DNA of 25,520 bases from a virus (IMGVR_UViG_2695420380_000007), one strand, 5' to 3'. Positions 6,006 through 25,520 are shown, numbered from the stretch's first letter. The notes: generated by a model not told the origin, from the letters alone. Program-made: numbers and translations.

Positions 6006-6583
6006 TGCGGGCCTCCTGTCGAATCGCTGCCACCTTTAACGCCACCGTGCTTATGCGTATGCACTGTGATGCCGTTTGAGGTGAAATCGCCGCCGCTGTG
6101 CGTGATATTGCCGCTCATCGTTCCCCCTTTTGTGACGTCAAGCGTCGCTGTTCTCAGAAGGTCTGTGCATTCCACGACAGGCGTGTTCAGTGTCACGCTG
6201 ATGGATGCCTGCAAAGTGGCCGTTTTCATGCCGCTTGCGCTCAGTGCGCCTGCGTCCGCGTCGTAGCGGAACACCGCGCCGTCCGGCGCGCTGACCACGA
6301 TTTCTTTCAGGCTTTTGCCGGGTGCCGGAATGGCATCACTCCACAGGCTGCCGATTATCATGGCGGTTTCCGGGTTGCCGCCGATGCAGGCAATTGCCAC
6401 CTGTTCGCCTGGTGATGGCGGAAACCACACGTTGAAGTCTCCCGCGCGCGTGGTGTTCCAGCGCAGCCAGCCTGTTTCCAGTTCGCCGCTGCGAACGCGC
6501 ACGCACCAGGATTCCTCATCAACTTCAGAGATGATCCCGGTGCGGATGATATTGCTCAGCAGTCGCATGAGTTCTGCGCTCAT
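6002..6583 (-). CDS. V: Baseplate spike protein V
   Basis: 193 aa, ATG at 6581-6583 in an ATGA overlap with the upstream gene; position upstream of W. Confidence 0.8.
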   Translation of the reverse strand: MSAELMRLLSNIIRTGIISEVDEESWCVRVRSGELETGWLRWNTTRAGDFNVWFPPSPGEQVAIACIGGNPETAMIIGSLWSDAIPAPGKSLKEIVVSAPDGAVFRYDADAGALSASGMKTATLQASISVTLNTPVVECTDLLRTATLDVTKGGTMSGNITHSGGDFTSNGITVHTHKHGGVKGGSDSTGGPQ

Positions 6584-7215
6584 CGTACAGCCTCCGCAAT
6601 CCGGCCCAGCACCGTGTTATAAATCAGGCGCTCATCTGCCTGGCTGATACCCAGCAGCTCACGTACCGGGTAATCGGTGAAAATGCCCGGCGCAACCTGA
6701 TCGCGCTCACCGAACTGATGAACGCGTGCAATACGTGCGGCCACGCCGCTGTAACCCACCGTCACACCGGAAGCATCTGCACGGGCTTTCAGGTAGCGGG
6801 CGGTGCGCAGTTTTACGAACATGGAGACGCGCCTGGTGCTGTCCTGGTTGATGCGCCGGGTGCGTATTTCCAGAAAACGGTCGATGTCATCCCGGTAAAA
6901 CGTGCGGATATTGTTTTTATCCTCATCCCACCCGGTGATGGTTCGCCCGTATTTCCCCGTGTCGTGATGCCAGTTTTTCAGCGTGCGTGCTTCGTTATTC
7001 CAGATAAAGCGAATGCGCTCCTGTATCCGGGTTACGCGGCGTCTGCGTGGTGTCCATGCGGTCCCGTCCGGCGCTTTCTGTGACCGGATACGCGCCTGCT
7101 GGGCGCGGCGTAAATCCTGTGCCAGCTTTCTGGCGATGTTATTAATGGCCTGCTGATTCAGGCTGTCGCGGATAGCCTCAAAGGTTTCATCCACGCGGGT
7201 GAATGCCTTATCCAT
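6580..7215 (-). CDS. S: Virion morphogenesis / tail completion protein (gpS-like)
   Basis: 211-aa ORF, ATG 7213-7215, overlapping the R stop; position between R and V. Longer than P2 gpS (about 150 aa, from memory), so the start may be internal. Confidence 0.65.
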   Translation of the reverse strand: MDKAFTRVDETFEAIRDSLNQQAINNIARKLAQDLRRAQQARIRSQKAPDGTAWTPRRRRVTRIQERIRFIWNNEARTLKNWHHDTGKYGRTITGWDEDKNNIRTFYRDDIDRFLEIRTRRINQDSTRRVSMFVKLRTARYLKARADASGVTVGYSGVAARIARVHQFGERDQVAPGIFTDYPVRELLGISQADERLIYNTVLGRIAEAVR

Positions 7216-7700
7216 CGCTTTCCCCCCACGTCACATCCTGGAATACATGCGACCAGTCGCCTTCGGAAGAGGGCAGGCGGGGTTTTGGCTCCGGCAGGTG
7301 TTCTGCCTGCGGTGTGCCCTGACTGCTGCGCGTGATGCGAACGCGTTCCCGCAGGGGGAGCGTAAACAGGAGATCGGCGCTGTCATCGTCATTGATAACG
7401 GCGGAAAATTTGATGTCCTGATTACGCTCCGGATTGAGCAACAACTGTGGCTGATTTTCGGATAACCACGCCAGCAGCGGCAGCGTGAGGTCGTCCAGCT
7501 CTCCGGCGTAATCCATGACAAACATCACTATCTGATANNNNNNNNNNNNNNNNNNNNNGATAGCGGTAAACAAACGATGGGGTTTCTCCGGTCGTTTCAA
7601 TGTTGCCGCTCTCCACGAAAATGGTGAATTTTTCCGGGTTGGCATGACACCACCGGCATGAACGGGTCATGGCTTCACGCAGGGAATCAGTTTTCAGCAT
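7208..7700 (-). CDS. R: Tail completion protein R (frame interrupted only by N-run 7538-7558)
   Basis: ATG at 7698-7700 (MLKTDSLREAM...); C-terminal part is ORF 7208-7645; the two join in frame if the N-run plus a 4-nt duplicated flank (gata) is removed. Confidence 0.7.
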
Positions 7701-8007
7701 GGTTGTTGTCCTCGTTGTTCAGTCNNNNNNNNNNNNNNNNNNNNNNNNNNNGTCGTTGCAGCCTGCGCTGTTCCAGTAATTCAATGGCCCGCTTATCGGC
7801 GTTACAGGTTTCCAGTGCGTCCATGAGGCTGTCGCTCCATATCCCGATGTTTCCCCATGATGGCGTCACCGGAAACGGCGGGGGAAGTACGGGGGCGGTC
7901 AGCCCTTCCGGGATGAAACGGAACGACGGCGGCGGCGCGGACGCGTTCTGCGTGCTGGTGCAACCGCTCAGTAAAGCGAGCGTCAGGAACAGCGCGGGCA
8001 CATGCAT
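7687..8007 (-). CDS. lysC: Outer-membrane spanin lipoprotein (Rz1/LysC-like), partly embedded in lysB in another frame
   Basis: ATG at 8005-8007 gives MHVPALFLTLALLSGC (lipobox LLSGC) followed by a proline-rich segment; starts inside the i-spanin gene and runs past its end. 3' end uncertain because of N-run 7725-7751. Confidence 0.6.
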   Translation of the reverse strand: MHVPALFLTLALLSGCTSTQNASAPPPSFRFIPEGLTAPVLPPPFPVTPSWGNIGIWSDSLMDALETCNADKRAIELLEQRRLQRXXXXXXXXXXLNNEDNNHAEN

Positions 8008-9333: not shown

Positions 9334-9966
9334 TCAGAGATGGCCCAGCTCACATCGCGCCACAAATCCGATGTCTGTATATCCAGTGCGTCCGCNNNNN
9401 NNNNNNNNNNNNNNNNNNNNNNNNNNNNGGCGGTCGCCCTTGTCCGTTGTGTCCGCATCGCGGTAACGCTCCAGAATCAGGGCGCGTGTGGCGGTATAAA
9501 CAGCATTGCGCCAGTGCCAGAGATTGACGCTTTCTCCGTTAATTACAGGTGCCGGAACATCGGCCAGCNNNNNNNNNNNNNNNNNNNNNNNNNNNNNNNN
9601 NNNNNNNNNNNNNNNNNNNNNNNNNNNNNNNNNNNNNNNNNNNNNNNNNNNNNNNNNNNNNNNNNNNNNNNNNNNNNNNNNNNNNNNNNNNNNNNNNNNN
9701 NNNNNNNNNNNNNNNNNNNNNNNNNNNNNNNNNNNNNNNNNNNNNNNNNNNNNNNNNNNNNNNNNNNNNNNNNNNNNNNNNNNNNNNNNNNNNNNNNNNN
9801 NNNNNNNNNNNNNNNNNNNNNNNNNNNNNNNNNNNNNNNNNNNNNNNNNNNNNNNNNNNNNNNNNNNNNNNNNNNNNNNNNNNNNNNNNNNNNNNNNNNN
9901 NNNNNNNNNNNNNNNNNNNNNNNNNNNGTGCGCGGTGTAAACGGTCACGGAGCCAAACCGGAACAC
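9334..9966 (-). CDS. L: Head completion/stabilisation protein L (largely hidden by N-runs 9397-9428 and 9569-9927)
   Basis: Position between M and X; the visible middle segment 9429-9568 encodes a clean peptide on the minus strand (LADVPAPVINGESVNLWHWRNAVYTATRALILERYRD...). Boundaries approximate. Confidence 0.5.
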   Translation of the reverse strand: MFRFGSVTVYTAHXXXXXXXXXXXXXXXXXXXXXXXXXXXXXXXXXXXXXXXXXXXXXXXXXXXXXXXXXXXXXXXXXXXXXXXXXXXXXXXXXXXXXXXXXXXXXXXXXXXXXXXXXXXXXXXXXXXXXXXXLADVPAPVINGESVNLWHWRNAVYTATRALILERYRDADTTDKGDRXXXXXXXXXXXXGRTGYTDIGFVARCELGHL

Positions 9967-9997: not shown

Positions 9998-10798
9998 TTA
10001 ACCGCGCTTCGCCTTCTGCGTCGCGGTGGTTTTTCGTGTTGCAGGCTTCCGCGTTGTCTTTTTACTTTCGCTGCTTTCGTCCTGCGCCTGCTGTGCGCTG
10101 GCGTCTTCTGGTGCGGCTGCGGAATCGGCTTTTTTCAGGGCGCGGGAAAGGGTTGCAATCTCGCGTTTCACACCTGCGTTCTGGTTCAGATGCATCGCTT
10201 CGCGCAGCAGCTTCAGTGATGAGGCCATGCTGTCCGCATCGCTCAGGCCACGGCGGGCAAAGGCGCACGCCTTGCATAATTTGGCGCGCACTTCGTCCGG
10301 CATATCCTGGTTGGCGACAATTTCCCAAAGTGTGTCCAGTGGTTCGATAAAGACGGACAAATCCGCGTCGGCATCCGTCCCGGCCTGCGTCAGTACCGGA
10401 TTGCAGATTTCTTCGGTCAGCACTGTGGCAGCAGTACGGCCAAAGTTATCCGGCATGATGAGGTTGTGACGGACCGCATACGCACCAATACGCAGCGCAA
10501 GCGGAAGATCGCCGCAGTCAATCGCCCACACCATCAGCGTGGCAATCACTTCGTCCTGTTGCCCGCCGTCAGCCTCCAGCGTTCCCTCAATCCAGCCGGA
10601 AAAGTCCGGCAACAACGCTTTTTTGATGTCGGCTTTCGCGCTTCTGGCCTGTACGCCCTTAAGCCGGGCCTGTGCCAGACGCAGACGATACAGCACCTCT
10701 TCATGCGCGGTACGCGCGGCGTGGTCCACACCTTCATTCGCCCGGCCTGCGCGCTGTGCCATCACGTTCTGCCAGTGTTGCTGTGCAGGAGTAATCAT
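9998..10798 (-). CDS. M: Terminase small (endonuclease) subunit M
   Basis: 266 aa, ATG 10796-10798 preceded by GGAGAG; position between N and L; basic Ala/Lys-rich C-terminal tail. Confidence 0.8.
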   Translation of the reverse strand: MITPAQQHWQNVMAQRAGRANEGVDHAARTAHEEVLYRLRLAQARLKGVQARSAKADIKKALLPDFSGWIEGTLEADGGQQDEVIATLMVWAIDCGDLPLALRIGAYAVRHNLIMPDNFGRTAATVLTEEICNPVLTQAGTDADADLSVFIEPLDTLWEIVANQDMPDEVRAKLCKACAFARRGLSDADSMASSLKLLREAMHLNQNAGVKREIATLSRALKKADSAAAPEDASAQQAQDESSESKKTTRKPATRKTTATQKAKRG

Positions 10799-10843: not shown

Positions 10844-11896
10844 TTAGCTGTCGGCGAACTTCAGGCCAGTGACCATCGCGCACTTGCCATAGTCTTCAAC
10901 GACATAAGCGTCATTGATGGACTGGTAGGTGGCGATGCGGTTGTATTCCGGTTCGTCTTTCATCAGACGACGCATTGAACCTTTCTGCCAGTAAATCGAC
11001 AGGTTGTTGAATGAGGTGATCAGCATCGTTGCATCCGGGAAGAACGGTGCAAGGAACACACCCAGCCCGCCAATGGTGCGCGATGACAGGATGAGCTGCC
11101 CGGCAAGTAATTCCGCATTGGGATTCTGGCCGCTGATGCTGTTCAGCACTGGCAGACGCAGCGAGTTAAACAGGTTGCGCCCCATAATCACCACGAGGTC
11201 GTCAGCTTCCTTGTGCCATTCATCCAGCAGAGATGAGCGCGCGTCCTGTACCAGTGCATCAGGGTTCGCGTATTTACCCGCGTGCGCCACGGTGTTGTCC
11301 ATGTTGCGGGAAGTCAGCGTCACGTCATTCATTACGCGCTCGCTGGCATTGGTTCTGATGTGCTCCAGCCACCCCACGTTAACGTCCTGAAGCAGCTTGT
11401 TGGTGCTGAAGTTGGACTCATCCGCGTGAGATGTGCCGTTGAAACCGATCATGATGCGGTCAAGTGCCACCTGTCGGGCAATCTGTGCGCTGATGCGGGA
11501 CTGAAAATCGCTGTGTGCCGACCAGGCATCAAGCTGCGGATACGAAATAAACGTGTCGTAGTTCACCTGTTCGCACTGGTATTTGCGGTTTTTCAGATCA
11601 ACCACGTTATTCGGGTTACGGCGTTTTGTTCCGTCATAACTGGTATTTGTGCGTGCAATCGGTCCTGTGGTGTCCAGGAGGATTTTTTCGCCTTTCTGGT
11701 CGGTCACGCCGATCACGTTAATTTTTTTTGTAAGTTCGGTGCTATCCTTTGAGGCGTTTTCAAAACGTTGCTGCACCGCAGGTTCCACGGTAAATCGCGA
11801 TACCAGTGCAGAAACCGGGATATTGTTAAGCGACGCCTGCTGCGCCATATAGCAACCCAGCTTGTTGCGGGTAATATCTGACATCACCAGATTCAT
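10844..11896 (-). CDS. N: Major capsid protein N
   Basis: 350 aa; FTVEP...GEKI...NLSIYW...YVVEDY resembles P2 gpN (from memory). AAGGAG lies upstream of ATG 11894-11896; an alternative ATG is at 11882-11884. Confidence 0.85.
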   Translation of the reverse strand: MNLVMSDITRNKLGCYMAQQASLNNIPVSALVSRFTVEPAVQQRFENASKDSTELTKKINVIGVTDQKGEKILLDTTGPIARTNTSYDGTKRRNPNNVVDLKNRKYQCEQVNYDTFISYPQLDAWSAHSDFQSRISAQIARQVALDRIMIGFNGTSHADESNFSTNKLLQDVNVGWLEHIRTNASERVMNDVTLTSRNMDNTVAHAGKYANPDALVQDARSSLLDEWHKEADDLVVIMGRNLFNSLRLPVLNSISGQNPNAELLAGQLILSSRTIGGLGVFLAPFFPDATMLITSFNNLSIYWQKGSMRRLMKDEPEYNRIATYQSINDAYVVEDYGKCAMVTGLKFADS

Positions 11897-12787: not shown

Positions 12788-14766
12788 ATGATGGCAAAGC
12801 GTAACAGGCTGATACAAAGGGCTTTTGTTGTAAGAAAACGGCCAGANNNNNNNNNNNNNNNNNNNNNNNNNNNNNNNNNNNNNNNNNNNNNNNNNNNNNN
12901 NNNNNNNNNNNNNNNNNNNNNNNNNNNNNNNNNNNNNNNNNNNNNNNNNNNNNNNNNNNNNNNNNNNNNNNNNNNNNNNNNNNNNNNNNNNNNNNNNNNN
13001 NNNNNNNNNNNNNNNNNNNNNNNNNNNNNNNNNNNNNNNNNNNNNNNNNNNNNNNNNNNNNNNNNNNNNNNNNNNNNNNNNNNNNNNNNNNNNNNNNNNN
13101 NNNNNNNNNNNNNNNNNNNNNNNNNNNNNNNNNNNNNNNNNNNNNNNNNNNNNNNNNNNNNNNNNNNNNNNNNNNNNNNNNNNNNNNNNNNNNNNNNNNN
13201 NNNNNNNNNNNNNNNNNNNNNNNNNNNNNNNNNNNNNNNNNNNNNNNNNNNNNNNNNNNNNNNNNNNNNNNNNNNNNNNNNNNNNNNNNNNNNGATGCGA
13301 CGGCCACAGGAAAGAAAGGCCGGGCGAAAAAACTCAAAAATCATTTCACGCCGGAACAGATTGCCGCACTGCGGGAAAAAATCATCAGCAGGCTGGAGTG
13401 GCATCAGCGGGGCTGGTTTGACTCCCTGACGCTTTGCAGGGAAGCCGGGATACGTAACAGGATGATCCTGAAATCCCGACAGATTGGGGCGACCTGGTAT
13501 TTTGCACAGGAAGCACTGCTGATGGCGCTGCGTGACGATGTGGCACAACCTTACCAGCGTAACCAGATTTTTTTGTCTGCGTCGCGTCGTCAGGCGTTCC
13601 AGTTTAAAAGCATTATTCAGAAGGCCGCGGCTGAAGTCGATGTGGAGCTGAAAGGGGGCGATAAAATCATCCTCTCCAACGGCGCAGAGATGCATTTTCT
13701 CGGCACTTCTGCTGCGACGGCGCAATCTTACACGGGCAATTTTTATTTTGATGAATTTTTCTGGGTCAGTCGCTTTGCTGAACTGCGCAAGGTGGCTGGC
13801 GCTATGGCAACCCTCAGCGGACTGCGGCGCACCTGCTTCTCCACGCCATCCACCGAAACGCACGAGGCATACGCCTACTGGAACGGCGACCGCTGGAACG
13901 AGAAAAAGGCCGCGCATAAACGCCAGCGTTTTTCTGTGGACTGGAAAACGCTGCATAACGGGCTTATCTGCCCTGACCGGACGTGGCGGCAAATTGTCAC
14001 GCTGGAAGATGTGGTTAATCACGGCTGGAAACACACCGATATTGATGAAATTCGTGATGAAAACACCGAAGACGAGTTCCGCAATCTCTATATGTGTGAG
14101 TTTGTCCGCGAAGGGGAATCGGCATTTAACCTGAATATCCTGATTGGCTGCGGTGTTGACGGATACGACGACTGGAAAGACTGGAAACCCTTTGCCCCCC
14201 GCCCGATGGGGAATCGTCCGGTATGGATTGGGTATGACGCAAACGGCAGCAGTGGTAACGGCGACAGCGGCGCTGTGTCCGTGGTGGTTCCTCCGGCTGT
14301 TCCTGGTGGTCGTTTCAGAACGGTGGAGACGCGACGCGTTCAGGGGCTGGAATTTGAAGAGCAGGCCAGAGTTATTGAAGAGTTCACGTATCGCTACAAC
14401 GTGGAACACATCGGCATTGATGCGACGGGCGGGCACGGGGATGCCGTCTATCAGATAGTGAAACGGTTTTTTCCCGCCGCCATCCCTTACACCTTCACGC
14501 TGTCATCAAAACGGTCGCTGGTACTGAAAATGCTGCAAATAATGCGTGCCGGGCGGTGGGAATACGATCGCGCCGAACGCGAGCTGGTTGCGGCCTTTAA
14601 CGCCGTGCGTAAGGTGAAAACACCGGGCGGTTTTATCACTTACGAAACGGACCGCGCGAGGGGGATCAGCCACGGCGACCTTGCGTGGGCAACCATGCTT
14701 GCTGTCATTAACGAACCGATTGGCGGCGAAGGAGAAAACGAGCGTTTCACGGTTATGGAGTTCTGA
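12788..14766 (+). CDS. P: Terminase large (ATPase) subunit P; 5' end uncertain because of N-run 12847-13293
   Basis: Unambiguous coding from 13294 (KSRQIGATWYFAQEALL... to stop at 14766). If the N-run is an artefact with a 2-nt overlap (ga), the frame joins ATGATG at 12788. ATGA overlap with Q. Confidence 0.7.
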
Positions 14767-15812
14767 TGAGCAGAAAAAATAAAAAAGTGCGCATGAGTTC
14801 ACGCATTGATCTCGCTGATGCGCTCAGGAAAGAATCGTCGCTCAGTGCATTCACATTTGATGGTCCTTACCGCCTGACCGGGCATGACCTGCTGGACAAT
14901 ATGTACTGTGCTGATAACGGGCGGTGGTATGAAACCCCGGTGGACTGGTACGGTCTGGCAAGAGCTGCCCGGCAAACGTCCTGGCATCAGTCTGCGCTTT
15001 ACTTTAAGCGCAATGTATTGCTCGGCTGCTATATTCCGCACCCGCTGCTTTCCCGGCAGGATTTCTCGGCGCTGGCGCTGGACTGGTTTGTGTTCGGTAA
15101 CGCATTCCTTGAGCTTCGGAGCAATATGCTCGGCGAACCGCTTAAATTACGGCACGCCCTGGCGAAATACATGCGACGCGGAAGCGATCTTGAATCATGG
15201 TGGTATGTGCAGGATGGCAAGGATGCGTTTCAGTTTCGTCCTGGCAAAGTGTGCCACCTGATGAATCCGGATATTAACCAGGAAATCTACGGCATGCCGG
15301 AATATCTTGGCGCATTACTCTCGGCCAGCCTTTCTCATTCGGCGGACATGTTCAGAAAACTGTACTACGACAACGGATCCCACGCCGGGTGCATCATCTA
15401 CATCGGTGCAGCGCAGGTAAACCGCGAAAGCATGGACTCCCTGAAAGAAACGCTACAGGGGGCACGTGGTGGTGGTGCGTTTAAAAACGTGCTCATTCAT
15501 GCGCCCAACGGGGGCAAAGAGGGGGTGCAAATTTTGCCGTTCCAGCAGATCACCGCAAAGGATGAGTTCATGAATGTTAAGGCGGCATCCCGTGATGATG
15601 TGCTGGCTGCGCACCGCGTTCCGCCGCAACTGATGGGGGCGATGCCGGGCGAAAAAAGTGCGTTTGGTGATGTGGAGAAGGCCGCGCGGGTTTACGCAAT
15701 TAACGAGCTGATGCCCGTCATGGAGGCCATGAAGCACATCAATGACTGGCTTGGCGAAGAGGTGATCCGCTTTAACCCTTACGCACTGTTAGACACCCAG
15801 CCCACATCCTGA
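14766..15812 (+). CDS. Q: Portal vertex protein Q
   Basis: 348 aa, ATG 14766-14768 overlapping the P stop; size and position (last gene before the presumed cos region) match P2 gpQ. Confidence 0.8.
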   Translation: MSRKNKKVRMSSRIDLADALRKESSLSAFTFDGPYRLTGHDLLDNMYCADNGRWYETPVDWYGLARAARQTSWHQSALYFKRNVLLGCYIPHPLLSRQDFSALALDWFVFGNAFLELRSNMLGEPLKLRHALAKYMRRGSDLESWWYVQDGKDAFQFRPGKVCHLMNPDINQEIYGMPEYLGALLSASLSHSADMFRKLYYDNGSHAGCIIYIGAAQVNRESMDSLKETLQGARGGGAFKNVLIHAPNGGKEGVQILPFQQITAKDEFMNVKAASRDDVLAAHRVPPQLMGAMPGEKSAFGDVEKAARVYAINELMPVMEAMKHINDWLGEEVIRFNPYALLDTQPTS

Positions 15813-15839
15813 CGCGCTTCGCTTGTCTGCTGCTTCGCC

Positions 15840-15862
15840 GGGGCATAAAAAATTTATGCCCC
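15840..15862. other. Perfect 10-bp-stem hairpin downstream of Q
   Basis: ggggcataaa-aaa-tttatgcccc; no U-tract on either strand, so not a canonical intrinsic terminator. Confidence 0.5.
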
Positions 15863-16303
15863 GACTCTCCAGCTCCTGTATCAGTCAGATAATTTCACGA
15901 CGCTTTCCTGCTGATTGCCATCATCGACAGTCAGACTCTTACGCAATCCCACCTCGTTGACTGCATATTCTCGCCGTCTCAGTGCGATTTTGACGGCCTT
16001 ACCTTTCACCCCATCAAATCAAAAGCCCTCACGTCTTTTTCACGCTCAGCGTGAGAAATACAGCCATTCTGTTGTATCTCTGCGACATCGTTCAGGGAAT
16101 GCTATTTACCCCCTGAAACGCGGGCTGTTCCCCCGTCACCTGCGCGCAGAAAAAACGCGTTTTTTTGTGCATGCACGGATCCTTGACGGATCCAGCCGCC
16201 ACGCGGGCCGGAAGGGCAAAAAGTCGTTCAAAAAAATTGTGCAAATTTGTGCACTATTGTGCATTTATAAAATCAACTAAAAAACACCTAGTGTGACTTA
16301 CCT
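15863..16303. other. Non-coding, palindrome-rich region between Q and the cargo operon; candidate cos/packaging region
   Basis: No credible ORF. Palindromes at 16040-16054, 16150-16165 and 16167-16176; CGGATCC direct repeat at 16176-16182 and 16187-16193; G-rich 19-mer 16122-16140. P2 cos lies next to Q (established knowledge). Confidence 0.4.
16237..16263. repeat. Three direct TTGTGCA repeats at exact 10-bp phasing
   Basis: TTGTGCA at 16237-16243, 16247-16253 and 16257-16263, immediately downstream of the stop of the last cargo gene. Confidence 0.6.
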
Positions 16304-16489
16304 CTACCACTCGATCGGCACGTAGTCATTAAGTTCCGGAGACCAATTGCACTTTTCACATCTGTGTTTTCCATTCTGGCAGATACATAAACGATAACGG
16401 CCACAATGCGGGCACCCATTTTCACCATTATCATAATCACCGAGCGACCATTCCTGCATAAGCAGCTCTTCTTCATCATCATTTAGCAT
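16304..16489 (-). CDS. Small Cys-rich (zinc-ribbon-like) protein, function unknown
   Basis: 61 aa; ATG 16487-16489 preceded by AAGGGGGA; CPHCGRYRLCICQNGKHRCEKC gives a CxxC...CxC...CxxC pattern; acidic N-terminus. Confidence 0.55.
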   Translation of the reverse strand: MLNDDEEELLMQEWSLGDYDNGENGCPHCGRYRLCICQNGKHRCEKCNWSPELNDYVPIEW

Positions 16490-17640: not shown

Positions 17641-18600
17641 TTACTCCTTGTCCATTGCGTACAGCCCATTAACCAGAGCAAACTGTGGCACCCCGTCCGC
17701 GATGAAAGTCGCATTAACTCCGCAGGCTTCGCGGATAGCGGGTGCCACAATCTCCGCCCCTCCACCGACAACCATCACCCGCCCGTAACCCGAAAAACCC
17801 GCCAGCGCGCGGATCACGCGTTGTTTCAGTGTTTCTTCCTTTTCACGAATAACCGCCATCAGGCTGGCGTAATGCGCGTCATTGTGGATGTGCTGGCGCA
17901 GCCAGGCTTCATCATGGCGATGTTCGATAATGGTATTGGCGATGTGGTGACTGGTGCGCATACCGTTAGTGGCCATCACCGACAGTACGGCATCGGCCAT
18001 CAGAGAAACGCCTACGTGTGGATCGCAAAACACCTGGCTGATACCTGCCAGTTGCCCCTGAACCTTTGCCACATCCAGCGTGGTTCCGCCCAAATCCACA
18101 ATCAGCAGGGATTCAAACGGACTCATGTCAGCCAGTGCCTTAAAGCCAGCCGGAATGGATTCAGGCATAACCCGCACGTTACGGATAGTGAATGCTTCGC
18201 CGTTCTGGTACTCCACCGGGCGCATAACGTTCGCTTTTTTGCGGTTGATGTTGGCCATGTCCGGCTGTGCGTTTGTGTCGAAATACTCGCTCAGTGGCAG
18301 GGTGACAACCACATCCACCTCCTGTGGCGTGATGCCTGATTTGACCAGCGCGTGATGAATGGCAATGACATTTACATCGCTGTACTGGTATTGCGTGTCG
18401 GTTGTCTGGACAAAGCGATCGCTGACCGGATCAAAACCATAGCGCACGCCATCAAGCATGTAGTTCGCGGGCTGCATGCCACCGAACGGCGCAGACCATT
18501 CCGACTTGAAGCTGTTCGGGCTGATGGCGTTGCGGCGTTCGCCGTTCTCAGTCCATGCCAGCTTGATGTTGGTGGAGCCGTCGTCGATACAAATTTTCAT
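17641..18600 (-). CDS. parM: ParM/StbA actin-like segregation ATPase
   Basis: 319 aa, ATG 18598-18600 preceded by AAGGA; shared motifs with R1 ParM recalled from memory: IDDGSTNIKL, ISPNSFK, YSDVNV, NRKKAN, VMPESIPAG, LLIVDLGGTTLD, VMVVGGGAE. Confidence 0.85.
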   Translation of the reverse strand: MKICIDDGSTNIKLAWTENGERRNAISPNSFKSEWSAPFGGMQPANYMLDGVRYGFDPVSDRFVQTTDTQYQYSDVNVIAIHHALVKSGITPQEVDVVVTLPLSEYFDTNAQPDMANINRKKANVMRPVEYQNGEAFTIRNVRVMPESIPAGFKALADMSPFESLLIVDLGGTTLDVAKVQGQLAGISQVFCDPHVGVSLMADAVLSVMATNGMRTSHHIANTIIEHRHDEAWLRQHIHNDAHYASLMAVIREKEETLKQRVIRALAGFSGYGRVMVVGGGAEIVAPAIREACGVNATFIADGVPQFALVNGLYAMDKE

Positions 18601-18743: not shown

Positions 18744-21558
18744 TTTCCACTGGTCAGGCCACCCCGCAGCAGGTCTGCTTTGCGGCGGGCGCGTTCAGTG
18801 GTTTCACTGATTCTCTGTGCGTGCTCTGCGTCGCGGATGGCGCGCAGCATGTCAGAAAGCACGGTAACGGGTGTTTTCATGGTGTTCTGGTCCTGCTGAA
18901 GTGTGGATGCCAGGCGTGCGGCGGCTTCAGGGTCTGATGCCCCCAGCTGTGTCAGATAGCTGGCGACCGGGTTATGGCGGATCTCCGTGCTGCTTACGCC
19001 ATGATTACGGCTCAGGCGCTGCCAGAGCTGCGTGATTCGGCTGTCCGGGCGGGTATCCGGTTTGCGTACAATTTCAAATCCCTGCGGTGCAATGATGCTG
19101 CCGTCAACGTACAGACTGCCGCCCCGTAACAGGTGCTGCATCTGTTGTTCACCGATATGCAGGCCGAGAGATTCAGCAGACTCCCGCCATTCTTTAGCGA
19201 GTAATTCGTGGTTATCAGGCAAAGGCCGCTGCTGTTTGCGGCTCTGTGTCCAGCTCTGCATTTCATCACTGCTGTTTTTTGCCTGTTTGTCACGAAGCGA
19301 ACGCATCAGCGCCCGGCGTTCGTGCCGTTTCAGTGAGCGCATCCATTCATCCACATCAACGCCGTCAGGGAGCTGCGGCCACGGTGCTGGCCGTTCTTCC
19401 GGCTGTTCTGTCCCGTTGTTGTCCGTTTCCTGTACACGGGGACAGTTATTGCCACGAGTCCAAGGGGCGGCAGGGCCGCCCTGAAGGTCAAAACCATTTT
19501 CGCGGGCGCTGTCTTCCGCTTCCGGTTTGCGTCTTACCAGCTTCCAGTTATCCGGATGCGTGCACACACGGNNNNNNNNNNNNNNNNNNNNNNNNNNNNN
19601 NNNNNNNNNNNNNNNNNNNNNNNNNNNNNNNNNNNNNNNNNNNNNAAATCTGTACGCTCTGTTCGCCGTAATCGTTCAGCTCATCGGCGAGGTCGTAGGC
19701 GGTGCGAATCAGGTAGTCTTTGCGTGGAACAAGTACGCCGCCCTGTTTCTCTATGTAGGTGNNNNNNNNNNNNNNNNNNNNNNNNNNNNNNNNNNNNNNN
19801 NNNNNNNNNNNNNNNNNNNNNNNNNNNNNNNNNNNNNNNNNNNNNNNNNNNNNNNNNNNNNNNNNNNNNNNNNNNNNNNNNNNNNNNNNNNNNNNNNNNN
19901 NNNNNNNNNNNNNNNNNNNNNNNNNNNNNNNNNNNNNNNNNNNNNNNNNNNNNNNNNNNNNNNNNNNNNNNNNNNNNNNNNNNNNNNNNNNNNNNNNNNN
20001 NNNNNNNNNNNNNNNNNNNNNNNNNNNNNNNNTCGATGCCATCCACGGCGCGGCTGTCCAGGTTTTTCCCGATGTAGGTGGCGATGTAGCTGGTTGGCGT
20101 GCCTTTTGAGCCGTCTACATACTCCGCCTTAAAGCGCGGAGTTATGTCATCGCCCAGCTCGTGACGATCTTCCTGAATGGCAATATCGCGGGTGTGGGAC
20201 ACAATGGTGTCGATTTCTTCCGGATGAGCAAAGACCATCATATGCCAGTGCACGGTGCCGTCATGGTGAGGCTCCGCCGTGCGGATGCCATACCAGCGCA
20301 GGCCGTCGCGGTTCAGTTTTTTGCGGACCGTCGCAAAAAACGTGTTAACCAGGTAATCGCTGGAGTCGCGCATTGTGGCCCCGTTCCATTTGGGATTCGG
20401 ATGACCGTTCTCCGTTGTGGCGTGGTATTTTGACGGGCAGGTGACAGTCAGAAACACCGCTTTGTCGCCACGGGCTTCGGCCAGAAGTTCCAGCCCCTTC
20501 ATGGTGGCCATCATTTCTGCCTTACGGTGAACCGGGTTACTTACTCCCGCGTAATACACCGTCTCGAGATCAATCGTGAACCCGTCTTCATTTTCCAGCA
20601 TGAAACTTTTCAGGAAATCGCGTGTTTTCTCGCGCTGTGCGCGAAACTCGCTTAACGCGTCCTGGCTCAGATAGGGCGATGTTTTTCTGGAAACCAGACA
20701 GGCGGCGCGAAGTTGTTCTTCTCTCCACTCGCAACGTAACAGCCACAGTTTGCGTTTCCACCATTCCGCACAGGTCAGGCGAAGGATTGCGCCCGGCAGC
20801 AGTTCTGTGTCCGGTTCGTGCCTCCGGTCTTTGTCTGTTGTCAGTGCGTCATAATGCGGAGGCATGGCGTGTAAGTGTAACGCCATGCGGGCCAGCATCT
20901 GATACGCCTTCAGCGTTACATCCATGGTCAGCTCGCCATCAGTCGCGCCAAAACCATCGCAGAGTTTTTCGAAGGTGCTGCTGAACATCGCCGCCGTCAT
21001 GGTGGCCAGCGTCTGTATCTGGTGTTTGTTGAGTTGCGGCAGGTAAAGCAAATCGTCCAGGCGTTCACGTCCGGCAAGGGAGCGATAACCCGGTGTCAGC
21101 CAGTGTCCGTCAGTGCGATCCAGACGTTCGAATATTTTGCGCAGGGTTCCGCGTGCATAGCGTTCCGCCTGCCAGCTCTTTTTGCCTTTCCGGCGATCGG
21201 CTTCCTGTTTTTTGCGCAGGAAGGAGAGGTGGCGAATAAGCGGATCGCGCAGATAGGACGGCAGCAGGCGCAGCGAGGCCATGGCTTCATCCACCGCGCC
21301 GCGTGCCTGTTTTCTGGCGTCTCCTGCCAGTGTGATGGTTTTGTCCTGTTTTTCCTGTGCGTCCAGGCTTTTATTAATCAGGTTGCCCAGTGGCGTGGCG
21401 GAGAACGCCGCATCAGCCATTTCCTGGCGGCGCTCGTTCTCTGCCCGGTGGGCATCCAGCCAGGAGGAAAGCGCGGATTCAGGAGCGGGGATCCCCGTTC
21501 CTTCACGCCCCACTGCGTGGCGCGGTTGTTGCCAGTCCCTGATGTACTCTGCCGTCAT
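18677..21558 (-). CDS. A: Replication initiation endonuclease A (rolling-circle HUH type), interrupted by N-runs 19572-19645 and 19762-20032
   Basis: N-terminal ORF 19681-21558 (ATG 21556-21558) has the HUH motif HWHMMVF. Segment 19646-19761 encodes a clean peptide that joins the N-terminal frame if the 271-N run is removed. Assignment of ORF 18677-19567 as the C-terminus is inferred. Confidence 0.75.
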
Positions 21559-22603: not shown

Positions 22604-22720
22604 TTATTCTTCAGTGAAAAAGCGTTCAATCTTTTTTACTGAATTAATAATTCGCATAATCCCAATGGCGCAGACCACCGAAATAATCANNNNNNNNNNN
22701 NNNNNNNNNNNNNAAGCCAT
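22604..22720 (-). CDS. Possible small hydrophobic protein; interrupted by N-run 22690-22713
   Basis: Hydrophobic C-terminal peptide IISVVCAIGIMRIINSV; start ambiguous. Confidence 0.2.
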   Translation of the reverse strand: MAXXXXXXXXXIISVVCAIGIMRIINSVKKIERFFTEE

Positions 22721-22792: not shown

Positions 22793-22999
22793 TCAGCTCG
22801 GAAAGTTCGTTAAGTGCATCCAGATCATCAGCGTAAAAAGNNNNNNNNNNNNNNNGTAAAAAGCCACGTCATACAGACTTCGGATTGCTCTGGTCAATGA
22901 GTCACGGGCCGCACGTTCAGCATGAGCGCCTGATGCACTTAAGCGAAAATAAAAACGCTCAAGTGCTTTGTTAATGAGAGTTTTATATTCTTTGCCCAT
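22793..22999 (-). CDS. Hypothetical early protein; interrupted by N-run 22841-22855
   Basis: ATG 22997-22999 (GTG at 23002 also possible) preceded by AAGGG; the N-run is flanked by an 8-nt duplication (gtaaaaag). Confidence 0.35.
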   Translation of the reverse strand: MGKEYKTLINKALERFYFRLSASGAHAERAARDSLTRAIRSLYDVAFYXXXXXLFTLMIWMHLTNFPS

Positions 23000-25437: not shown

Positions 25438-25520
25438 NNNNNNNNNNNNNNNNNNNNNNNNNNNNNNNNNNNNNNNNNNNNNNNNNNNNNNNNNNNNNNN
25501 NNNNNNNNNNNNCATAAAGA

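Follow-up and report, generated by a model that had tools for sequence, protein, structure and literature searches.

A predicted cos site in a P88-like prophage of the P2 family: layout homologous to P2, 186 and P4, with a sequence type of its own

The region downstream of the portal gene Q was analyzed in a viral sequence of 25,520 nucleotides (IMGVR_UViG_2695420380_000007, the whole of which is called the window below). Sequence comparison makes it very probable that positions 16104-16263 are the cos site of this P88-like prophage. An initial annotation had proposed the entire interval between Q and the cargo genes (15813-16303, about 490 bp) as a candidate region for cos and packaging signals. 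The presence of cos in this interval is supported by the layout of its elements, by bridged profile matches, by conservation and by sharing with a satellite. Only about 160 of the flagged bases (16104-16263) appear to behave as cos; the first 290 bp (15813-16103) consist of a terminator-like hairpin and a lineage-specific spacer, both outside the shared block. The comparisons support a P88-type cos whose layout is homologous to that of P2, 186 and P4 and whose sequence type is its own, conceptually as the P2 model predicts.

The prophage in the window belongs to the P88-like group (genus Xuanwuvirus) of the P2 family. Its nearest phage records, at 93-98% identity, are Escherichia phages 500465-2, P88, Chuche and 520873 and Citrobacter phage phiSM. 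The records of P88 and phiSM, which are reported as active phages (PMC6456863), contain the same cos block. As in other P2-like phages, where the gpA-gpQ interval is a cos-proximal hotspot (PMC9122126), the block is located downstream of Q and before the cargo hotspot on the gpA side. The portal gene (gpQ homologue, 14766-15812, plus strand) matches Pfam Phage_portal (E = 4e-18) and its product is 47% identical to P2 gpQ. Both cognate terminase genes are found in the same element. The small terminase (gpM homologue, 9998-10798, minus strand) matches Pfam Phage_term_smal (PF05944, E = 1e-36) and is 36% identical to P2 gpM. The large terminase (gpP homologue, 13462-14766, plus strand) is visible over its C-terminal 434 aa, with Pfam Terminase_6N and Terminase_6C domains and 47% identity to residues 164-589 of P2 gpP; its N-terminal third is masked by an N-run (12847-13293). 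A P2-family capsid protein gene (gpN) lies at 10844-11896 on the minus strand. Eleven N-runs are present in all: besides the one just mentioned, they cover 1894-1981, 7538-7558, 7725-7751, 9396-9428, 9569-9927, 19572-19645, 19762-20032 (in gene A), 22690-22713, 22841-22855 and 25438-25512. Since they affect the large terminase gene and gene A, intactness of the prophage and of its terminase is not a property that can be judged from the window.

On the other side of the block, beyond 16264, all genes are on the minus strand: small cargo genes, a ParM-like gene and the replication gene A (19681-21558). The ParM-like gene (17641-18600, minus strand), a cargo between gene A and cos, encodes a full-length ParM/StbA-type plasmid segregation ATPase (Pfam E = 3e-82). 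An integrating P2-like phage would not usually carry such a gene, which might reflect a plasmid-like stage or a defence role. A distance of 25 bp separates the cos block from the end of the last cargo ORF (16288-16482, minus strand). In P88, 503458 and phiT5282H a G+C-rich hairpin terminator is found just past the third TTGTGCA of the block, and none is present at the corresponding place in the window (16264-16290); with the cargo ORF ending so close, cargo transcription may enter cos.

The limits of the block (16104-16263, plus strand) are those of the stretch common to distant phages and to the satellite. The satellite match, obtained by BLAST on E. coli genomes, covers 16104-16263 with 80% identity, the match to phage phiT5282H covers 16119-16283, and the nhmmer profile match covers 16110-16261 with an envelope starting at 16102. 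In all close relatives similarity ends at about 16263, which is the edge of the variable cargo. Reading from the Q side, the predicted cohesive-end 19-mer GGGCTGTTCCCCCGTCACC (16122-16140, plus strand; reverse complement ggtgacgggggaacagccc), the putative cosN equivalent, is followed by a TGCGCGC flank (16141-16147, plus strand). This flank, which was not fixed by the search, has a mean identity of 0.98 in 33 distant relatives, and is also found in the satellite copies, in Klebsiella phage 3LV2017 and in an E. coli locus (L132). A T-run with a proximal GTGCAT element (16161-16172, plus strand) is the counterpart of TTTTAATGCA in P2, 186 and P4, and its positions 16162-16171 are invariant among distant relatives. 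Further out come a G-rich block GGGCCGGAAGGGCAAAA (16205-16221, plus strand), with identities of 0.8-1.0 in distant relatives and kept in all three satellite copies, and an A-run followed by three TTGTGCA at 16237, 16247 and 16257, i.e. with a 10-bp period (16229-16263, plus strand; mean identity 0.94). By analogy this last array would be a cosB-like binding array for the small terminase. TTGTGCA occurs seven times in the window, and four of these occurrences are within 16165-16263.

The palindromes, the CGGATCC pair and the 19-mer of the initial annotation are all present as it described them. Those on which it laid stress are mostly not conserved, and the array of three TTGTGCA, which it omitted, is among the conserved parts, together with the 19-mer and TGCGCGC, the T-run/GTGCA element and the G-rich block. 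In addition to the palindromes TGCGCGCA (16141-16148) and TGCATGCA (16168-16175), the block contains AAAAAACGCGTTTTTT (A6CGCGT6, 16150-16165), which is confined to the Xuanwuvirus subgroup, only its T-run half being conserved; the mean identity of 16148-16159 in distant relatives is 0.23. The CGGATCC pair consists of two copies of ACGGATCC (16175-16182 and 16186-16193, plus strand) with a spacing of 11 bp. The first GATCC, with its GATC, is conserved among distant phages and the second CGGATCC varies. The A6CGCGT6 palindrome and both GGATCC are absent from the satellites, and are therefore probably not needed for packaging. The pair also carries two GATC (Dam) sites (16178-16181 and 16189-16192), flanked by the proximal terminase-type repeat on one side and the distal ones on the other.

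The initial annotation had based its comparison on a resemblance between the 19-mer and the P2 cohesive end. The P2 sequence that it gave is exact (GGCGAGGCGGGGAAAGCAC, positions 1-19 of NC_001895, annotated cosL), and the count of 13 identical positions out of 19 is correct. As evidence for cos this identity was rejected, being at chance level by itself: 17 positions of the window match the P2 or the 186 19-mer (GGCGTGGCGGGGAAAGCAT) at 13/19 or better, compared to a mean expectation of 10.6, and better matches exist elsewhere in the window (one of 15/19 and one of 14/19). Expectations for the 19-mer matches, as for the TGCA layout below, were obtained from first-order Markov simulations. A search with the P2 19-mer allowing up to three mismatches gave no match.

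The ends of the P2, 186 and P4 records were joined into circular junctions, oriented as the window, and aligned by MAFFT. This alignment to known cos regions, a check that the initial annotation had proposed, places the P2, 186 and P4 19-mers on 16122-16140 (the P2 and 186 records carry an annotation of their cohesive ends), so that the 19-mer of the window is their positional homologue in spite of a direct identity of only 13/19. The cargo-side elements follow the same layout. In P2, 186 and P4, TGCA is found at +26, +98 and +108 after the 19-mer; in P4, TTTTAATGCA begins 20 bp past the 19-mer and ATGCA repeats stand further out. In the window the T-run also starts at +20 and TGCA occurs at +28, +100, +110 and +120. 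The internal spacing of 72 and then 10 bp is therefore identical, and the whole array lies 2 bp further out. A TGCA triple with this spacing is present only once in the window, both strands considered, at 16168 (0.02 expected per window), and none of 3000 simulations placed such a triple beside a 19-mer match of at least 11/19. It is the whole layout, and not the 19-mer alone, that goes beyond chance.

The direct similarity to the known sites is below detection: an nhmmer profile built from P2, 186 and P4 alone has no match at the site, nor any significant match elsewhere in the window, and the link depends on intermediates and on the layout. The main intermediate is Klebsiella phage 3LV2017 (Reginaelenavirus), which has a related Q gene and gives no blastn match to the cos arm of the window. 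Its cos region (L135, 1820-1980) is a hybrid, in which GCGCGCTTGCTCCCCCGCCTCGCC is followed by TGCGCGC: the right half of the 19-mer, CCCCGCCTCGCC, is of P2 type, and the TGCGCGC flank and TGTGCA repeats are of window type. Once 3LV2017 is added to P2, 186 and P4, the profile has a single match in the window, at 16110-16261 (E = 3.1e-6); 3LV2017 alone matches the window with E = 1.1e-10 (nhmmer). The search also works in reverse. A profile made exclusively of window-type sites finds the junctions of P4 (E = 7e-5) and 186 (E = 0.002), and with 3LV2017 included it finds P4 (E = 3e-8), 186 (E = 2e-6) and P2 (E = 0.0055). The P4 match to the window-type-only profile starts exactly at base 1 of the P4 19-mer, at profile position 26, which is window position 16122; the remaining reverse matches begin 5-11 bases before the known 19-mer and run across it. 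The E. coli locus L132 (GGGCTTTCCCCCCGTCACC) is a second intermediate. The published end of Ralstonia phage RSA1, GGTGAGGCGGGGTCCAAC (PMC5694545), opens with GGTGA as does GGTGACGGGGG in the window. Compared to 3LV2017, the C-run of the window is shifted by 2 nt within the 19-mer, and the distance between the flanking GCGC motifs is unchanged; this constancy despite the shift hints at a constraint on overhang length.

Conservation was examined in viral contigs and in bacterial genomes. The exact 19-mer is present in at least 120 IMG/VR viral contigs, with Q upstream wherever enough upstream sequence is available; these loci were collected by the exact 19-mer, the invariance of which in this set is therefore by construction. 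P4-like satellites were sought among them, and none was found where the upstream sequence sufficed. About one third of the contigs are distant, with 71-76% DNA identity in the 3' end of Q and no match to 15813-16100. Among 33 representatives of these, the flanks have an identity to the window of 0.32, both left of 16100 and beyond 16263, compared to 0.89 for the T-run with GTGCAT and 0.94 for the A-run with its three TTGTGCA; the intervening spacer is at about 0.5, with islands at GATCC (16178-16182) and GGGC.G.AAGGG (16205-16216). Distant relatives retain the cos block as an island, with unrelated sequence on either side. Loci found by BLAST, which are unbiased with respect to the 19-mer, have an identical 19-mer in phiT5282H and in one satellite copy (L136), one base off in the two other satellite copies (L131 and L137) and two bases off in L132. 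Of 5426 complete E. coli genomes, 1150 carry the block, in most cases with 95-99% identity; a single genome may have as many as four copies, and their location is nearly always chromosomal.

Record ends were also inspected. Among the 18 phage records matching the cos arm, none has the 19-mer at its start or end, and none of the viral contigs with the 19-mer ends exactly there, the nearest ends being 5 and 16 nt away. Record LR595891 begins within cos, at the position corresponding to 16218, a start point that is probably arbitrary.

The weakest long BLAST match (H107, 80% identity) led to a 12.5-kb island of E. coli inserted between gcd and hpt, which has the features of a satellite (NZ_AP042483.1, about 141.6-154.1 kb; L131 1-12160 and L133). 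Two further copies in other strains (L136 and L137) have the same gene content, and at least 47 complete E. coli genomes hold the element. Both the island and a P88-like prophage are present in strain ETEC1732, in which cos occurs in four copies. It encodes two tyrosine recombinases, an HTH regulator, an Icd-like protein, a full-length P4-alpha-like primase of 889 aa (phrog_1139), an Ogr/Delta zinc-finger protein, a MazEF pair and a P2-family major capsid protein of 423 aa (PF05125). The latter is 35% identical to gpN of the window and has about 120-130 extra N-terminal residues compared to the helper type. The satellite annotation contains no terminase, portal or tail gene, and no Sid or Psu. 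The satellite and the window are similar from about 16104 to 16263, the sequences on both sides being unrelated, and one copy contains the exact 19-mer. The presence of the block in an element devoid of packaging genes, which points to its use in trans, is the strongest sign that the terminase reads it. In the same manner, the cos core is the sole region shared by P2 and P4 (PMC9122126). A dense array of GGTTAC/GTAACC repeats is located between the satellite cos and an integrase-like gene (L131, about 6400-6850), and looks like an iteron-type origin, cf. P4 ori/crr. In place of the size-determining Sid and Psu of P4, the satellite has a divergent major capsid gene of the P2 family; a literature search found no description of a capsid-encoding satellite of P2-family helpers. 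It is conceivable, though we hold it as a tentative idea on the doubtful side, that the P88-type cos defines a separate packaging-specificity group within the P2 family, which this gcd-hpt satellite family exploits; if so, cos type would decide which helper each satellite can parasitise.

In the part of the interval next to Q, a perfect hairpin with an 11-bp stem (CGGGGCATAAA/TTTATGCCCCG, 15839-15863, plus strand; RNA fold -22.2 kcal/mol, z = -5.5) lies without a U-run at the position of the P2 terminator tQ, which is annotated 6-27 bp past the Q stop, and is probably the terminator of the P-Q operon. It is followed by a noncoding spacer (15864-16103) with 84-100% identity in close relatives, nearly all at 90% or more; distant relatives sharing the 19-mer give no blastn match to this spacer, and the satellite lacks it. 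The spacer contains a palindrome, TTTTTCACGCT.AGCGTGAGAAA (within 16033-16061, z = -2.6). The initial annotation had seen no credible ORF in the interval, and this holds insofar as the one mechanical ORF (15915-16280, plus strand, TTG start, 121 aa) is unmatched and not conserved: it has no Pfam or PHROG match, at least 12 close relatives have its frame interrupted only 9 codons before the 19-mer, and distant relatives do not preserve the frame, so that it was rejected as a gene.

Other functional categories were considered for the region. No Rfam covariance model scored above its gathering threshold, the only two matches being gyrA RNA (22 bits, threshold 45) and snR97 (22 bits, threshold 100), and a sigma-70 scan gave no promoter match. 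An origin of replication is disfavoured: the origin of P2-family phages is within gene A, and the block is common to a satellite with a putative iteron region of its own.

By homology with P2, 186 and P4, packaging would proceed as follows. The small terminase gpM (9998-10798) would recognise the cargo-side arm of cos, i.e. the T-run/GTGCA (16161-16172), the G-rich block (16205-16221) and the A-run with three TTGTGCA (16229-16263). The exact 10-bp spacing of these three repeats behind an A-run suggests that an oligomer binds bent DNA on one face. Positioned by gpM, gpP would then nick the two strands at either edge of the 19-mer. The predicted cuts, between 16141 and 16140 on the minus strand and between 16121 and 16122 on the plus strand, are modelled on the annotation of the 186 record ("top strand cut at 5' end and bottom strand cut at 3' end"). 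Both ends would carry 19-nt 5' overhangs, the Q-side end being predicted as 5'-GGTGACGGGGGAACAGCCC on the minus strand. Cleavage itself, the nick positions (to within about 2 nt), the overhang length and the binding of the TGCA repeats by gpM are all put forward by analogy with the known systems. P2 terminase prefers monomeric circles as substrate, and the absence of a conserved Q-side element beyond about 18 bp fits this preference.

Some doubt concerns the exact place of the nicks. The register of the 19-mer appears uncertain by about 2 nt, since sequence alignment favours 16122-16140 and the distance to the TGCA elements favours 16124-16142. The cut could be shifted (e.g. to 16124-16142), be of a length other than 19 nt, or be centred on the TGCGCGCA palindrome, with cos still in the block. 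We regard this as unlikely, while giving it appreciable weight. The distance from the 19-mer to the TGCA elements exceeds that in P2, 186 and P4 by 2 bp, the C-run is displaced by 2 nt compared to P2 and 3LV2017, one MAFFT run required a 1-nt gap within the 19-mer, and related Ralstonia phages have differing ends (PMC5694545). The register 16122-16140 is nevertheless favoured by the ungapped and profile alignments, both of which set base 1 of the known 19-mer on 16122, by the distance between flanking GCGC motifs, which is that of 3LV2017, and by the T-run found at +20 in the P2 type and the window type alike.

Other readings touch the function of the block. According to one of them the TTGTGCA repeats and palindromes are transcription signals of the flanking operons, such as an operator, a promoter or the terminator of the cargo operon, and do not bind terminase, packaging recognition being limited to a core of about 55 bp, the published size of the conserved core of P2-family cos (PMC5694545). 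On the minus strand GTGCACAAATTTGCAC followed by the T-run does score as terminator-like, with the cargo operon running into it, and the P2 old-tin transcript starts near the ATGCA repeats. We consider this reading improbable: the repeats keep their sequence and their spacing to the 19-mer while the adjacent cargo is wholly different in every lineage, they are retained in P4 and in satellites amid different flanking genes, the promoter scan was negative, and the minus-strand fold is no better than shuffled sequences (z = -0.17); moreover, transcription and packaging roles are not mutually exclusive. The last reading, that the resemblance is due to chance or is the relic of a dead cos in a defective prophage, seems to us very remote indeed. 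It would account for an identity at chance level, for the silence of the P2/186/P4-only profile and for an intactness that the N-runs leave undemonstrable. It agrees poorly with a block carried by about one fifth of complete E. coli genomes with little divergence, standing as an island amid unrelated flanks, common to a satellite, matched specifically in both directions by the bridged profiles and present in two phages reported as active (PMC6456863). A cos site at 16104-16263, with nicks at or close to the edges of 16122-16140, remains the reading that we prefer.

This assignment would locate the start and end of the virion genome in a very common E. coli prophage type, the block being carried by about one fifth of complete E. 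coli genomes. For cosmids or delivery vectors of P88 type it offers a candidate packaging signal of 160 bp, and it sets 16263 as the exact conserved edge at which the defence/cargo hotspot begins. Cos type, besides gene content, could be used to pair P2-family helpers with satellites. On the whole the result is a useful annotation and not a surprise, and a literature search found no paper defining cos for P88 or Xuanwuvirus.

The known cos of P2, 186 and P4 has 19-nt 5' cohesive ends and a 55-bp conserved core, described by Ziermann and Calendar in 1990 as relayed in PMC5694545. The predicted site resembles these in many respects: it is just downstream of the portal gene and beside a variable hotspot, its G+C-rich 19-mer is asymmetric and includes a C-run, and after the 19-mer come a T-run with TGCA at some 26-28 bp and then TGCA repeats 72 and 82 bp past the proximal element; homologous gpM and gpP genes and sharing with a satellite complete the likeness. 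It differs from P2 at 6 of the 19 cohesive-end positions, in its cargo-side flank (TGCGCGC, compared to CGCCCGC in P2), in its repeat unit (TTGTGCA, recurring strictly every 10 bp behind an A-run, compared to ATGCA at 10 and 12 bp in P2) and in the length of the spacer between Q and cos (309 bp compared to 167 bp). Phage 3LV2017, for which a literature search found no experimental definition of cos, is like the window in its TGCGCGC flank, its TGTGCA-type repeats and its A-run with a triple repeat; it is unlike the window in the right half of its 19-mer (CCCCGCCTCGCC) and in its distal TGCA at +98, +108 and +118, both as in P2. The comparison can be extended to the cos of lambda, composed of cosQ, cosN and cosB. 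In both cases a nicking site is flanked on one side by a repeat array for the small terminase. Lambda has no sequence relationship with the present site, and differs by its 12-nt overhang, its R-sites with an IHF site and its cosQ for cutting concatemers, of which no counterpart is evident in the window.
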